A stretch of 64,000 bases of DNA from an uncultured Myxococcales bacterium (GTDB taxonomy: Bacteria; Myxococcota_A; Polyangia; Polyangiales; Polyangiaceae), in the NCBI GenBank assembly GCA_937872925.1, contig CALMUT010000027.1:6763-70762 (forward strand). Direction: 5' to 3'. The notes below the pieces were generated by a model. That model was not told the DNA's origin. It searched no databases and was given only the letters and a program-made list of their open reading frames with translations. This document shows positions 40,329-48,622 of this stretch, one piece after another (within the stretch, counting starts at the first letter, position 1; each line of letters opens with the position of its first letter). Both the position numbers and the translations under genes were made by a program.

Positions 40329-40342
40329 GCAAGGGTTGTGCC
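40329..40342 (-). promoter_or_regulatory. candidate sigma-54 (-24/-12) promoter for the minor-pilin operon
   Basis: The minus strand reads CCGGCACAACCCTTGCT. GG and GC are separated by exactly 10 nt, matching YTGGCACGrNNNTTGCW at 11 of 13 specified positions. It ends ~17 nt upstream of the annotated GTG start. Confidence 0.4.
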
Positions 40343-40517
40343 GGGCGGGTGGAACCAAGGCGCCCGGTATTTGCAGGCTTTTTGCCCAGGCGCTGCGCGC
40401 AGCCCGGTAAGGATTGCGACGCTATGTAATCATTGCGGAGCGCGGGGCTGCCGGCCCGCTGGCCGGATCTCCGTCGGACAATTGCGTGATCTCGGCCGGC
40501 GTTCTATTCGAAGCCCC

Positions 40518-41633
40518 ATGCGTGCACCTCTTCCGACCCTGTTTCTGTGCTGCGTCGCCCTGCTCGGCTGCGACAAAAAAGAAGGCCTCGAAAAAGAGCA
40601 GGGAGCGGCGCCTCCTCCGATAGCAAGTACCAAACCCGGCGCCTGCGCTGGCGGTGGCGGCAAGGTCGCCGACCCGGTCAGCGCGGCGTTCTTCCCTCGC
40701 GTCGCTGGCAGCTACTGCGTCGACCCGAACGGGGAGACCCGAGCCTTCGGAGAGGGCGCAAGCGGGTCCCTGGACAAGGTCTGCACGGAGCTCTTCGACG
40801 GCGAATGCGAAGTCTACAAGCAGTTCGGCCTCCAGCGGGTGGTGACGTTGCGTTACATCGACGGCAGCGGATCCCCCGGAGCCGTGAACGTGAATCTGAG
40901 TCGCTTCGCGACCCGTGAGGGCGCGTACGGCTTCTTCACGAAGCGCGTCATCGCCGACGGCGATCCCCTCGAGGTCGCCCCCGCTGCCCTCGAGGCGGGA
41001 ACGGCGGCGGCCCTGGGGACCGGGATCGCGTACGTGGGGCGCGGACAGCACGTCGCTGAACTCTCCTATACGAACGAACTTGAGTCGCCGGATCAACTCA
41101 AGACCAGCAGTCAGAAAGTGCTGCCGCCCTTGGGCAAGGACATGGGCGAAAAACTGCCGGGGGACAAAGGGTTCCCCAAACCCGTCACGGCGCTGCCAAC
41201 GGAAAAGCGAGTCGCGATGGGCGTGGCATTCATCTCTGGGGATTTGCTCGACGTTTCCGGCGCCGGCCCCGGGGCGCTCGGATATTACAAGGACGGCGAG
41301 CGGCGCTACCGTGTCCTGAGCGCCGAACGCGCCGACGAAGCGGGAGCTAAGGACGTGCTCAAAACGCTGCGCAAGCTCGACGGGGCCAAGGGCGTCAAAG
41401 GCGTGCTCTACGACGCCGTGAGCTTTACGCGCAAAGCGGACGATCAAAGCCCGGCGGTGGCCTGGGTGGTCGGTCGACATGAGGGCAAGCTGTTTGGAGT
41501 CGGTGACGAGGAACAGGTACTCAGCTCCGATCAGAGCGCAGAGGAAGCGGCGAAGTTGAAGCTGAGCGCAGACGAAAAAATGACAATGCTCAGCGCACTG
41601 ATCGAGGCCGCCAAGACCCCGGCATCGCCGTAG
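40518..41633 (+). CDS. hypothetical lipoprotein (371 aa)
   Basis: Start at ATG 40518: MRAPLPTLFLCCVALLGC lipobox. No family recognised. Confidence 0.6.
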   Translation: MRAPLPTLFLCCVALLGCDKKEGLEKEQGAAPPPIASTKPGACAGGGGKVADPVSAAFFPRVAGSYCVDPNGETRAFGEGASGSLDKVCTELFDGECEVYKQFGLQRVVTLRYIDGSGSPGAVNVNLSRFATREGAYGFFTKRVIADGDPLEVAPAALEAGTAAALGTGIAYVGRGQHVAELSYTNELESPDQLKTSSQKVLPPLGKDMGEKLPGDKGFPKPVTALPTEKRVAMGVAFISGDLLDVSGAGPGALGYYKDGERRYRVLSAERADEAGAKDVLKTLRKLDGAKGVKGVLYDAVSFTRKADDQSPAVAWVVGRHEGKLFGVGDEEQVLSSDQSAEEAAKLKLSADEKMTMLSALIEAAKTPASP

Positions 41634-44245: not shown

Positions 44246-45085
44246 TCACGCTTTCAGTTTGGCCCAGGCGTTCGTGATCACCGCGTCCGGGCGTCCACCG
44301 GCGTACGCCGCGATCGCCAGCGTGGTCTCGTCCACCCGGGACATTTCGGTCCGTACGGTCTCCCCCGGCCAGACCGGCTTGCGAAATTGCACGCCAAGTT
44401 CGACCAGGCGATTGGCGTCGCCGTCCAGCCACTGCTGCGTGACCGCCCGGGCGACAAAACCATAGGTCGCCAGTCCGTGCAGGATGGGCCCCTGGGGAAA
44501 CCCGACCATCTTCGCGAAGTCCGGATCGGCGTGGAGCGGATTCAGATCCCCCGACAACCGGTAGAGCAGCGCCTGCTCGGGCAGGGTCGTCTCCTCGTGT
44601 ACCTTGTCGGCGTCACCCTTGGGACTCGCCGGGATTTCGGTCTTCGGGGGTGGCGGGCCACCGAAGCTGCCCGCGCCGCGAAATAGGATCGCCCACTCGG
44701 TATCGAAGCAAGGCTCACCTTTGACGCTTGTCTTGGTCTCAACCACCACCTGGGCCATCTTTTTCATGTCGTAGATGCCCTTGATAGTCCCGACCGTCGA
44801 GAGCGTGCCCTCGCTCGGGATCGGTCGGTGCACCCGCACGATTTGCCCGCCGTGCACGACCATCGCCAGATCGCCTTTGGTCTTGGCCAGCACGTCACCG
44901 ATGACGGGCAACACCGGAACCACGGCAAAGGTGGGGTAAACCTTGGGACCCTTGGATTCGTAAAGATAGTCCAGCTCGTCGCGCTTTGCGCCGATCCCGA
45001 GGGCGTACAACACGACCGTTTTCCAGTCGTAGGTGAATTCGTGGGCCTGTGTTTGGTAGCCCGCTGTGGAGACATCCAAGCTCAT
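44246..45085 (-). CDS. MaoC-family (R)-specific enoyl-CoA hydratase, double hot-dog
   Basis: LYRLSGDLNPLHADPDFAKMVGFPQGPILHGLATYGF. The 279-aa two-lobe layout resembles the hydratase-2 domain of MFE-2. Confidence 0.8.
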   Translation of the reverse strand: MSLDVSTAGYQTQAHEFTYDWKTVVLYALGIGAKRDELDYLYESKGPKVYPTFAVVPVLPVIGDVLAKTKGDLAMVVHGGQIVRVHRPIPSEGTLSTVGTIKGIYDMKKMAQVVVETKTSVKGEPCFDTEWAILFRGAGSFGGPPPPKTEIPASPKGDADKVHEETTLPEQALLYRLSGDLNPLHADPDFAKMVGFPQGPILHGLATYGFVARAVTQQWLDGDANRLVELGVQFRKPVWPGETVRTEMSRVDETTLAIAAYAGGRPDAVITNAWAKLKA

Positions 45086-45203
45086 CGTCTGCTCCGTTCT
45101 GTGGTCAGGGCCACCGGTTACTGGCCCGCCGCCTTGTCGTCAATCGCTGAACAACGCCCCGGGTTGACGCCGCGCGGAGGGGTGGGGGAGCGTCGGGGAA
45201 ATC

Positions 45204-45932
45204 GTGGCGCCCGGTGTCCTTTCTATCGCTTTCGATCTCGCTCAAGACCTGGGCGTCGATTTGCCCGCCTGGGGACTGGCGTGGGCTCGAACCGCTCCGA
45301 CGATCATCCTGGTGCCCGCCTTCGGATTGCGCGCCATCCCGGCGCCAGCCCGGGCCATGCTGGGTTTGGTGATCGCCGCCGCCGTTGCGCCAGCGATAGC
45401 CGTGACGCGCGATCCAAGTCTGCCCTGGGCGCTCGCAGCCGCCTACGAAGGGCTGCGTGGGGTGCCCGTGGCGATCGGAGCAGCCGCCGCGCTCTGGGCC
45501 GCCAGTCAAGCGGGTGGATTGGTGGACAACCTACGCGGCGGACGTGAACAGGCGAGTCTGCCCAACGTCGAATCCGGCAGCACACCCACGGGCGCCATGC
45601 TGTCCATGCTGATCGCCGTTGCGTTTCTGGAAGGTGGCGGTGCCAGCAAGGTGGCCCAGGCGTTGATTCGGGCAGATCAAGATGTCGAGCACGCATTCTC
45701 GCGGGCGGTGGTCACGCTGTTGGCCAGCATCGAGGTCTCCATTGCGGTTGCAGCGCCGGTTATCGCGGCATCGATCGTGTTGGAAGTTGCGAGCGCGCTC
45801 GTCTCCCGCGCTGCAAGTCCAGCGTACCTCCAGCCGCTGCTCGCTCCCTTGAAAAGCCTGGCCATTCTCGGAGTGTTTGCGCTGATTCTTGAACGCGTGG
45901 TCGAACTCCTCGCCATCGCGAGCTTGAGCTGA
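45204..45932 (+). CDS. SctT/FliR-family type III export-gate protein homologue (orphan)
   Basis: ARTAPTIILVPAFGLRAIPAPARAMLGLVIAAAVAP; EGLRGVPVAIGAAAALWAASQAGGLVDNLRGG...STPTGAMLSMLIAVAFLEGGG; AAPVIAASIVLEVASALVSRAASPAYLQPLLAPLKSLAIL. These are collinear with the conserved blocks of YscT/FliR (Bac_export_1) as I recall them. Confidence 0.65.
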   Translation: MAPGVLSIAFDLAQDLGVDLPAWGLAWARTAPTIILVPAFGLRAIPAPARAMLGLVIAAAVAPAIAVTRDPSLPWALAAAYEGLRGVPVAIGAAAALWAASQAGGLVDNLRGGREQASLPNVESGSTPTGAMLSMLIAVAFLEGGGASKVAQALIRADQDVEHAFSRAVVTLLASIEVSIAVAAPVIAASIVLEVASALVSRAASPAYLQPLLAPLKSLAILGVFALILERVVELLAIASLS

Positions 45933-45941
45933 CGTCGGCGC

Positions 45942-46661
45942 TTACAGACGGATGCTGTAGGCGACGCTGAGGAGCACGCTGAATACGTCGTTCTGCCCGA
46001 CCAACGACGCCTCGTCACCGAGGGGGTCTGTCTGGGGAGTTTCCGGCAAAAACCAGCTTCCGTAGCGTAGGCCAGCGCCGACACTCCAGCGCGGGGCGAA
46101 CTGATAGGCCGCGCCCGTCGCGAGGCCAACGGTGTAGCCTTCGCTCCGGATCGTCACACCCCGGGGGCCGACCAGGGCGCGGTCGCTCTTGCCCTCGGTG
46201 GATTCGAAGCGATCACTGACAACGACGAGACCGCTCGTCAGGCCGAACCAGAATTCGAAGGGGTCTTCGGAATAGGGGTAGTAGCGCGCGATGGCTTCCA
46301 CGGTGAAGTAGCCGCGGGAGTGGTCTCGGGAGACGCCAGGAGGATCTTGGCGGGGCGCATCAGTGGTGGGGGTCAGCCCCAAGGTCACGCCTGCACCGAC
46401 GGCGAAGGTTGGGTGGGCGCGATAGAGTTGGAACGCGTCGAGTTCGAAACTGGAATCCCCTTTGGTGCAGCCGGCGATGTCTCGTTCCACGCACACCTCC
46501 GCAGCGGGCAAGACGAGCCAGCCCAGGCCAACCTCTGCCATGGCGCGCGGGCGGTCCGGCAGACCCTTATGATGAGCGTCTGCGTCGTCTGGTAACGGCT
46601 CGGTTTGCGCGTGGCTCTGCGCGGCCAGGGCGAGACAGGTCGCCAGGACGCGCGCTCTCAT
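45942..46661 (-). CDS. outer-membrane beta-barrel protein (OmpA-like barrel/porin family)
   Basis: Signal peptide MRARVLATCLALAAQSHAQ. Alternating beta-strand pattern with Gly/aromatic girdle residues. Its ATG overlaps the kinase stop (ATGA, 46658-46661). Confidence 0.6.
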   Translation of the reverse strand: MRARVLATCLALAAQSHAQTEPLPDDADAHHKGLPDRPRAMAEVGLGWLVLPAAEVCVERDIAGCTKGDSSFELDAFQLYRAHPTFAVGAGVTLGLTPTTDAPRQDPPGVSRDHSRGYFTVEAIARYYPYSEDPFEFWFGLTSGLVVVSDRFESTEGKSDRALVGPRGVTIRSEGYTVGLATGAAYQFAPRWSVGAGLRYGSWFLPETPQTDPLGDEASLVGQNDVFSVLLSVAYSIRL

Positions 46662-48622
46662 AACCAGCGTCCCCCGGCGGGCGCGCTTGCACTCGGCGCG
46701 ACCCGGGCGTCGCTCTCGCCGGCGTCAACGGCACCCACGGGTTTCGGCCCTCCGGGACGTCCCTTCGGCGGGGGCCGGACCGCGCCCCCCGGCGCTTTCT
46801 CCGCGGCCTTACTCGGCAGGGTGCTTGCGCGCAGTATGAGCTGCGCCGCTTCGTTTTCGGGATCCAGCGCCAGGGCCCGCTGTGCCAAGTCTTGAGCGCG
46901 TGGCGGATCCACGCCGCGGGCGGCCTCTGCTGCGAGTCGCAGGCGATCCGCAGCGTTGCGACGCACGCGCAGCAGCGCAGGGTTTCCCGGATGCCGTCGC
47001 AGCGCCGTATCGGTGATTTCGCGCACGTTGTCGCCCACTGGCGCATCATACGCCCCGCGCTCGAACGCCGCATGGGCTCGCGCGATATCGCGGTCTACTG
47101 CGGTTTGTTTGTCGCCAAAGACCCCCATTTGCCGCGCCGCAAAGAACGCGAGTATGCCGCCGAGCACAAAGCAGATCAGGATCAGCGGCGCGCGCGACCG
47201 CTCCAGGGGTGGCGGAGGCACGGACTCTGGAAGCTCGTCGTATGAGCGCTGCGGCTCAGGCACAGACGTTGGACCGGGATCGCTGAGGGTGGGGATGCTC
47301 GGCCGTGACTCCGGGCCCGGGCGCGTCGGGGCGTCTTGGCTGTTCGGTGCGCCCTCGTCAGAATCAGAAAGGGTGGGCTCAATGCCGGACCGCGAATCGA
47401 CTTGTGTCTCAGTCGCAGCGTCGATTTCGGTTTCTGGGGTGGCGTCGCGTGCCCGAGGCTCGGTGGCGCTGCTGCCGCTCGGGTCGATCACTTCCGTATG
47501 GCCGCTCCCGCCACGGAGCTTTTGTTCCAAGGACTCAGACAGGGGCAGCGCCTTGGTGCGCTGGATGCTTTCTAGGCTCAACGTGCCCTTGCTCATGAGT
47601 GTCGAGCGAACCATGAGCTCGTCGGGAGAAAGCCCTGACTTGCGCGCGGCGGTCACCAACATGCGTCCGAGCACTCGGGCGTTCTCCGCCCGCTTTGCCG
47701 GATCTTTCGCCAAATTCTGCATCACCACGTCCGCGATGGGCTTGGGCACGTAGCTGGCTCGCTCGATATCCGTGAGCTGCGGCGGCGGTTCGTTGGTGTG
47801 TTTGATCAGGATCCCGACCGGGCTGTCCGCGTCAAAGGGTGGCGAGCCACTCAGGCACTGAAACAGCATCACGGCGATGCTGTAGACGTCGCTGGCTGCA
47901 GTGACTTGCTTGCCTTGGGCGCCTTCGGGAGAAATGTAGCGCGCGGTTCCGAAGATGACGCCCGCCTGGGTGGCCACGGTATTGTCCGCCCAATCGATGC
48001 GAGCCACGCCAAAGTCGAGTACTTTGACGAAGTCTGGGTCGTCCCCCCGTCGCACGAGCATGACGTTTTCGGGCTTGAGATCTCGGTGCACGACGCCTTG
48101 ACTGTGCCCTTCGCCAACCGCGTCGCAGACCTGGAGCATCACATGCAGCGCACGTGGCAGCGGCAGGGATCCGCCTTCGGCGCCAAGGGCGGATCGTAGG
48201 GAGATGCCGTCCAAGTACTCCATCACGAGATACGCTTCACCGCCGATGTCGGCGCTGTGTTTTTCGACCTCGCCCGTCATCAGGACTTGCACGACATTGG
48301 GATGCGACAGGCGACTCGCCACTTTCGCTTCGCGCAAGAAACGTGCTTTCACCGTCGGATTGCGCAGCAGTTCCCGGTGGAGGATCTTCACCGCCACGTC
48401 GCGATCGATGCCACGCTGATGTGCGCGATAGACGCGCCCCATGGCACCAATGCCGATCAATTGCTGTAGGGACAGTTGATCGGCCAGCCGGATGCCGACG
48501 TAGGGATCGTCGAGTCCTTGGGTCTTCCGACCAGACAGCGGAGTGCCATCTTTTGGGCAAAAGATGACATCGTCGTCATATCGCTGGCCGCAGGCCGAGC
48601 AAACTTTGGTCAGCGGGGTCAT
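46658..48622 (-). CDS. Ser/Thr protein kinase with N-terminal zinc ribbon, TM segment and TPR-like C-terminus
   Basis: CSACGQRYDDDVIFCPKDG; GAMGRVY, VAVKIL, HRDLKPENVM, DFGVAR, SPEG; TM LILICFVLGGILAFFAA. Confidence 0.9.
   Translation of the reverse strand: MTPLTKVCSACGQRYDDDVIFCPKDGTPLSGRKTQGLDDPYVGIRLADQLSLQQLIGIGAMGRVYRAHQRGIDRDVAVKILHRELLRNPTVKARFLREAKVASRLSHPNVVQVLMTGEVEKHSADIGGEAYLVMEYLDGISLRSALGAEGGSLPLPRALHVMLQVCDAVGEGHSQGVVHRDLKPENVMLVRRGDDPDFVKVLDFGVARIDWADNTVATQAGVIFGTARYISPEGAQGKQVTAASDVYSIAVMLFQCLSGSPPFDADSPVGILIKHTNEPPPQLTDIERASYVPKPIADVVMQNLAKDPAKRAENARVLGRMLVTAARKSGLSPDELMVRSTLMSKGTLSLESIQRTKALPLSESLEQKLRGGSGHTEVIDPSGSSATEPRARDATPETEIDAATETQVDSRSGIEPTLSDSDEGAPNSQDAPTRPGPESRPSIPTLSDPGPTSVPEPQRSYDELPESVPPPPLERSRAPLILICFVLGGILAFFAARQMGVFGDKQTAVDRDIARAHAAFERGAYDAPVGDNVREITDTALRRHPGNPALLRVRRNAADRLRLAAEAARGVDPPRAQDLAQRALALDPENEAAQLILRASTLPSKAAEKAPGGAVRPPPKGRPGGPKPVGAVDAGESDARVAPSASAPAGGRWL

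Follow-up and report, generated by a model that had tools for sequence, protein, structure and literature searches.

What does a type III export gate subunit do when the genes for its partners are nowhere near its own? The question is raised by sctT, a gene of the SctT/FliR family in the window analysed here, a 64,000-nucleotide stretch that is part of contig C27 of assembly G000, from an uncultured Myxococcales bacterium. Flagellar and injectisome export-apparatus genes rank among the most syntenic genes known, and strict sctRSTU synteny was found in 87% of 1,152 clusters (bioRxiv 10.64898/2026.02.19.706803). The solved gates of injectisomes and flagella hold five SctR and four SctS in a helix closed by a single SctT/FliR, whose central loop (R-plug/Q2-belt) plugs the channel (PMC8726614). 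A sequence-only reading of the window had proposed that the gene is either what remains of an injectisome or flagellar cluster since lost, or a stand-alone paralogue recruited to another task.

The open reading frame list contains sctT exactly as delimited in that reading, at 45204..45932 on the plus strand, encoding 242 aa from a GTG start. The Pfam profile PF01311 (Bac_export_1) matched the product significantly over profile positions 3-222 of 230 (73.6 bits, cut-off 27.8; E=2.4e-20), and this confirmed the proposed SctT/FliR family assignment. Every sequence motif quoted in its support was present in the translation, which contains LVPAFGLRAIPAP, GGLVDNLRGGREQASLPNVESGSTPTGAML, FLEGGGA and VAAPVIAASIVLEVASALVSRAASPAYLQPLLAPLKSL. 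Among the NCBIfam models, TIGR01401 (SctT) scored highest with 73 bits and TIGR01400 (FliR) reached 43 bits, both scores lying under the respective equivalog cut-offs of 163 and 168.6. A profile built from 35 SctT orthologues was compared with the PDB, and the best match was Salmonella SpaR (SctT, 6pem_5; E=1.6e-11), aligned end to end including the DN.RG motif and the loop after it; in this plug-loop region (DN.RG...LP), GGLVDNLRGGREQASLPNVESG of SctT was aligned to IIDNQRGATLSSSIDPANG of SpaR. The 35-orthologue alignment has 32 invariant columns, among them G104, D108 and R111. The AF2 monomer model of SctT was of moderate confidence only (pLDDT 65.6), and in a Foldseek search of the PDB with this model the top nine matches were FliR, SpaR and Spa29 chains, at low TM-scores of 0.32-0.39. 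SpaR, Spa29 and EscT (Salmonella SPI-1, Shigella, EPEC; PDB 6pem, 6r6b) are thus the best solved-structure match by profile over the full length, at about 20% identity to the window SctT, but their genes are found inside sctRSTU operons, with sctT translation coupled to sctS in Salmonella.

Upstream of sctT lies a MaoC-like dehydratase gene (44246..45085, minus strand; Pfam MaoC_dehydratas and MFE-2_hydrat-2_N), a conserved neighbour outside the T3SS set, and downstream lie two further conserved neighbours, the genes for an OMP-like protein of 239 aa (45942-46661, minus strand) and a Ser/Thr kinase (46658-48622, minus strand), the kinase stop overlapping the ATG of the OMP-like gene by 4 nt (ATGA, 46658-46661). 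The earlier description of these flanks as a MaoC dehydratase and an OMP/kinase pair on the opposite strand was confirmed by the open reading frames and Pfam. Profile searches of the 81-kb contig C27 revealed no T3SS family match besides sctT. A scan of species-representative genomes yielded 80 sctT loci, including those of Polyangiaceae and Labilithrix MAGs and of the complete Labilithrix luteola DSM 27648 chromosome, and in none of the 80 was a gene for SctR/S/U/V/N/J/Q or FliO, or a flagellar export gene, located within 6 kb of sctT. The reported lack of a T3SS neighbour therefore holds both on the contig and throughout the related loci.

The order maoC <- | sctT -> | <- OMP <- kinase was found in relatives on long contigs at 46-89% identity, and of the 80 loci, 73 have MaoC as a neighbour, 69 the OMP and 64 the kinase. 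The MAG origin of the assembly (9.39 Mb, 377 contigs, 95% complete, 1.1% estimated contamination) would allow sctT to sit on a foreign contig placed there by a binning or assembly error, but this is refuted, with a negligible chance left to it, by the same gene and neighbourhood on contigs of 0.2-5.7 Mb and on the complete L. luteola chromosome.

Isolation from all partner genes and divergence from the curated SctT models would also be expected of a decaying relic. Homologues of SctT at E<=0.001 numbered 183 among 8,000 candidates scored, and the frame was intact in more than 180 homologues. Pairwise dN/dS of sctT against the closest orthologues was 0.05-0.07 (with dS saturated), similar to the 0.03-0.04 of the adjacent maoC. 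From these comparisons, sctT is under strong purifying selection and is maintained. With its position kept in 80 species and the 32 invariant columns added to this, the relic explanation can be dismissed as refuted, with at most a very slight probability remaining. Start-codon usage of the orthologues was also considered as a proxy for low translation and was found uninformative, as the sources rewrite the first residue as M.

Whole-genome profile searches of G000 then bear on whether partners exist at all. Two genes each were found for the Bac_export_1, FliP, FlhB and FlhA families, together with two FliI/SctN ATPases above the cut-off, two YscJ/FliF genes, and one FliQ-family gene only. One member of each pair belongs to a full-looking flagellar gene set outside the window (C357:39473-48024, C145:2-4851 and C95:47495-52858), which comprises flgC, fliF, fliG, fliH, fliI, fliJ, flgD and flgE on C357, a FliM-like gene, fliN, fliO, fliP, fliQ, fliR and flhB on C145, and flhA, flhF and fliW on C95. 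The clustered FliP (251 bits, cut-off 217), FlhB (311 bits vs 269) and FlhA (836 bits, cut-off 772) scored as flagellar with NCBIfam models, and the FliR on C145 scored 140 bits with the FliR model vs 88 with the SctT model. Joining contigs C145 and C95 into one flagellar cluster was considered and set aside, as the two share no sequence overlap and the join is unproven. Flagellar genes in uncultured Myxococcota were mentioned earlier (bioRxiv 10.1101/2021.07.06.451402); flagellar-type export genes were seen here in 14/18 clusters sampled from other Myxococcota families, 11 of them beside flgD/flgE.

The second set is solitary throughout. The sctR gene on C228 (214 bits, yscR cut-off 208.6) is preceded only by a FliO homologue gene and is followed by neither sctS nor sctT. 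Also solitary are sctU on C344 (285 bits vs 248 with the FlhB model), sctV at C183:23332-25344 (673 bits vs 552 with the FlhA model), sctN on C141 (547 bits; between dnaJ and a lipoprotein gene), sctJ at C91:5229-6008 (81 bits; a lipoprotein with a C-terminal TM helix) and a sctQ-like gene of 360 aa on C178 (C-terminal FliMN_C domain, 67.5 bits). Of the non-flagellar T3SS (NF-T3SS) core of Abby & Rocha 2012 (SctC, J, N, Q, R, S, T, U, V), G000 therefore encodes SctJ, SctN, SctQ, SctR, SctT, SctU and SctV, with non-flagellar-type scores. SctU carries the NPTH autocleavage site, the Walker A motif of SctN reads AGSGVGKS and its Walker B motif VLLLVDS, and the M-gate position is occupied by GMQMM in SctR and by GMMM in FliP; judged by these residues, the three partners look intact. 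The NF-T3SS core profile searches covered SctR/S/T/U/V/N/J/Q and the secretin. No SctC-type secretin was found in six family genomes, in which the best TIGR02516 score was 122 bits against a cut-off of 238 and the generic C-terminal secretin domain alone was matched. Second copies of FliH and FliJ (non-flagellar SctL and SctO) were not detected by single-sequence phmmer searches with FliH and FliJ.

These results overturn the premise that SctT lacks SctR, SctU and SctV, all of which are encoded as solitary genes elsewhere in the same genome along with SctN, SctJ and SctQ. They also dispose of the suggestion that a T3SS or flagellar cluster elsewhere simply lacks its own sctT, as G000 has a single cluster, the flagellar one, and FliR is encoded in it.

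The remaining partner, SctS, was sought by tblastn of G000 with the protein from a relative, G001 (GCA_041389725.1), whose SctT is 75% identical to the window SctT, and the flagellar fliQ was the only match. The solitary SctS of G001 is a protein of 85 aa (79.8 bits, cut-off 76.5) with a QVQD motif and, in place of the salt-bridge lysine, an arginine, and the gene flanking sctS in G001 has no orthologue in the G000 assembly. Besides G001 and G002, at least 12 other genomes of the family have a solitary sctS. Since most other genomes of the family have it, its absence from G000 is likely an assembly gap, and the claim that an SctS partner is lacking does not extend to the relatives.

The positions of R, S and T, the three subunits covered by the cross-genome co-occurrence, were compared in 18 family genomes (16 from the phylum sample, G001 and G002). 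The non-flagellar trio was complete in 13 of the 18 and all three were missing from two; of the others, one has T in fragments, G000 is without S, and one has R and a weak S without T. In eight family genomes the trio is present without flagellar-type FliP/Q/R, so the set is independent of the flagellar genes. Flagellar-type fliP itself was seen in 8/18 family genomes.

The co-occurrence bears directly on the second proposal of the sequence-only reading, a stand-alone SctT paralogue that does a job without SctR/S/U/V, for example with the OMP/kinase pair. Such a role would agree with the OMP/kinase adjacency conserved in 64-69 of the 80 loci, with the long stem branch and low equivalog score of SctT, and with a T3SS neighbour being found nowhere in the clade. 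However, the whole sctT region is syntenic in relatives (acyl-CoA dehydrogenase, PPIases, MaoC, ScpA), and the adjacency therefore need not mean a functional link; non-flagellar SctR and SctS accompany SctT in the 13 genomes and are jointly absent with it in two; and in export gates of known structure SctT forms part of the SctR5S4T1 helix. With non-flagellar SctR (with FliO), SctU, SctV, SctN, SctJ and SctQ encoded in the same genome, we regard a stand-alone recruit as unlikely.

The presence of a full flagellar export set in G000 allows a further explanation, in which the cell's flagellar apparatus can take SctT in place of FliR as its gate subunit. FliR belongs to the same Pfam family and has the same helical-hairpin architecture, but the flagellar FliR model scored lower on SctT (43 vs 73 bits), and the FliR of this genome is encoded in a fliPQR-flhB cluster, whereas sctT is solitary. 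A BLASTP comparison of the two proteins aligned 25 residues only (E=0.006), and being barely alignable they are taken to be old paralogues. The flagellar cluster has its own FliR, and the eight family genomes described above have SctT with non-flagellar SctR and SctS in the absence of flagellar-type FliP/Q/R; such a swap is disfavoured and highly improbable.

A maximum-likelihood tree of 30 SctT/FliR sequences placed the solitary SctT sequences in one clade (support 100/99) on a long stem branch (1.32), next to sequences from genomes in which sctS and sctT are adjacent (91/94). Both groups fall within a non-flagellar clade of 17 sequences (92/85), which takes in SctT from sctRSTU clusters of two other Myxococcota families, and all of the flagellar FliR (12/12) form a separate clade outside it. 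Given the long branches of this tree, nothing finer than the coarse split can be relied on, and the internal order is uncertain. Because the score lies far under the equivalog cut-off (73 vs 163 bits) and the stem branch is long, the function of SctT may have shifted.

Gene order in sister families offers intermediate layouts. The genes fliO-sctR-sctS-sctT are kept together in genomes from two other families of the same class. In genomes from three further families, which belong to the same order, sctS is next to sctT, and fliO-sctR was located elsewhere in those checked (f4 and f6). In Polyangiaceae, fliO-sctR, sctS and sctT are all apart. From these arrangements, an ancestral fliO-sctR-sctS-sctT cluster looks to have been broken up stepwise, a machine operon being dismantled while its genes were retained.

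The distances involved were measured in more contiguous assemblies. In G142, a near-complete genome in three contigs, sctT (1.28 Mb), sctS (2.67 Mb) and sctR (6.39 Mb) are located on one 7.0-Mb contig, 1.4-5 Mb from each other. In G102, sctT and sctS are 0.8 Mb apart and sctR is on another contig. A different layout was observed in the small family genome G004 (3.4 Mb), in which just 6.6 kb separates sctT from a fliO-sctR pair of the same orientation (G004:C2:85163-93202, L126), an arrangement that is either intermediate or secondary.

The closest described counterpart is the needle-less T3SS* of Myxococcus xanthus, or "Myxo" NF-T3SS (Abby & Rocha 2012, PMC3459982; PMC10433427), from the same phylum as G000. 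Its core of SctRSTUV, SctN, SctJ and SctQ with a FliO homologue is shared by the Polyangiaceae set, both are without a T3SS secretin, and in the tree SctT stands with the clustered non-flagellar SctT of other Myxococcota families and not with FliR. With an export apparatus, an ATPase and a small inner ring, and no secretin, the set thus has the content described for the "Myxo" NF-T3SS (PMC3459982). FliO homologues have been reported in Myxococcota non-flagellar T3SS (bioRxiv 10.1101/2025.05.06.652439), and the fliO-sctR pairing therefore fits. The two differ in that the Myxococcus genes form one cluster of conserved order (MXAN_2434-2464), whereas those of Polyangiaceae are separate loci megabases apart, in pairs at most, and in that the parts found in Polyangiaceae do not include SctD, SctL or SctI (SctL having been sought by phmmer with FliH). 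The T3SS* helps M. xanthus to lyse prey in a contact-dependent way, a role known from the genetics of M. xanthus only (PMC10433427).

Taking this together, we put at roughly three chances in four the reading in which SctT is the single-copy gate subunit of a secretin-less export apparatus resembling the Myxococcus T3SS*, with its genes fully scattered. SctT would be one subunit of a non-flagellar gate of the SctR5:SctS4:SctT1 type, and the parts would be encoded not by an operon but as singletons across the chromosome (fliO-sctR, sctT, sctU, sctV, sctN, sctJ and sctQ), with sctJ behind a conserved pseudokinase-TM gene and sctS solitary in the relatives. This apparatus would be separate from the flagellar one of the same genome. 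We infer that the products of the scattered genes come together in a single machine, which would export a substrate. A bolder form of this proposal, which we advance as a tentative possibility of low probability, is that Polyangiaceae have a working secretin-less machine built from fully unlinked genes, in which the 5:4:1 gate would form without operon order or sctS-sctT coupling, perhaps controlled by the adjacent kinases, the PP2C phosphatase and the pseudokinase-TM-periplasmic protein.

Several observations count against the scattered apparatus. Among them are the missing sctS of the G000 draft, the low equivalog score and long stem branch of SctT, and the moderate confidence of its AF2 model with the low TM-scores. 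In Salmonella, experiments pointed to a role for sctS-sctT adjacency, and for the translational coupling of the two genes, in correct assembly, and their uncoupling led to futile SctT multimers (bioRxiv 10.64898/2026.02.19.706803). Moreover, a search for an upstream motif shared by the seven scattered G000 genes, using 9-mers and the sigma-54-like pattern described below, found none, which counts against one machine.

Non-flagellar T3SS genes outside a single locus are known from Chlamydiales (PMC3459982), whose system is functional. There, however, about four multi-gene loci exist, three of them with core genes, whereas in Polyangiaceae the core occurs as singletons with sctR, sctS and sctT separated; Chlamydiae also possess a secretin and needle, and no SctC-type secretin was found in Polyangiaceae. 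What is new here is the splitting of the core into singletons, the known scattered case still having multi-gene loci. In the literature searched, neither T3SS genes of Labilithrix nor a scattered T3SS from Polyangia were described. The survey of 1,152 clusters required a detectable cluster, so that this layout could not be counted in it (bioRxiv 10.64898/2026.02.19.706803), and cluster-based detection tools will call Polyangiaceae genomes T3SS-less. At least 80 species, including a cultured isolate whose genome is complete, keep these genes under purifying selection although they lie megabases apart, which makes the Polyangiaceae layout a natural test of the sctS-sctT adjacency and coupling idea.

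Some small units have been kept. The fliO-sctR pair was found in every genome examined. In this unit (G000:C228:78293-80004 and L007:12823-13236), a 137-aa open reading frame without a Pfam match lies between fliO and sctR or overlaps them, and the gene after sctR, in G001 as well, encodes an RRM protein whose long tail is Gly-rich. The order dnaJ, sctN, lipoprotein, kinase is conserved in G000, G001 and G002. On C183, sctV is preceded by a FIST-domain gene, beside which is a PP2C phosphatase gene.

In each of the five loci examined, the gene immediately upstream of sctJ encodes a 520-aa pseudokinase-TM protein without a Pfam match (G000:C91:6022-7698, minus strand). Its kinase-like domain has no N-lobe, and the protein further comprises a small GYF-like domain, a single long TM helix and a periplasmic domain of alpha/beta type (residues 404-519). 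Homologues number more than 1,600, with at least 59% identity over the full length among the best 120, and the matches of a fold search were dominated by the kinase-like domain. It is a candidate that might replace the missing SctD ring protein. Three of the seven loci, those of sctT, sctR and sctN, have a kinase open reading frame no more than 1.5 kb away, vs 10% of the genome. Kinase adjacency was rejected as a common theme and is not built on here, because the kinase beside fliO-sctR is kept in close relatives only.

The divergent intergenic region between maoC and sctT (45086..45203) was also analysed. Close orthologous loci share a conserved block upstream of sctT at about 45117-45150 (GTTACTGGCCCGC..GTCGTCAATCGCTGA), with a GTCAA core that is invariant in 8/8 aligned orthologous upstream regions, and GGGGA is located 7 nt ahead of the GTG start. 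No sigma-70-like site was found in this region. A sigma-54-like TGGCCCG-N5-TTGT is present upstream of sctT, its spacer being one base longer than that of the sigma-54 consensus, and a counterpart is absent at the other scattered sct loci of G000. The conserved block itself is similar to a sigma-54 promoter apart from this extra spacer base. Further out, a DUF6599 gene lies upstream of the syntenic block (window 40338-41633), and in three loci of relatives (L015, L017 and L018) two N_methyl (pseudopilin-like) genes lie upstream of this block, in a conserved context.
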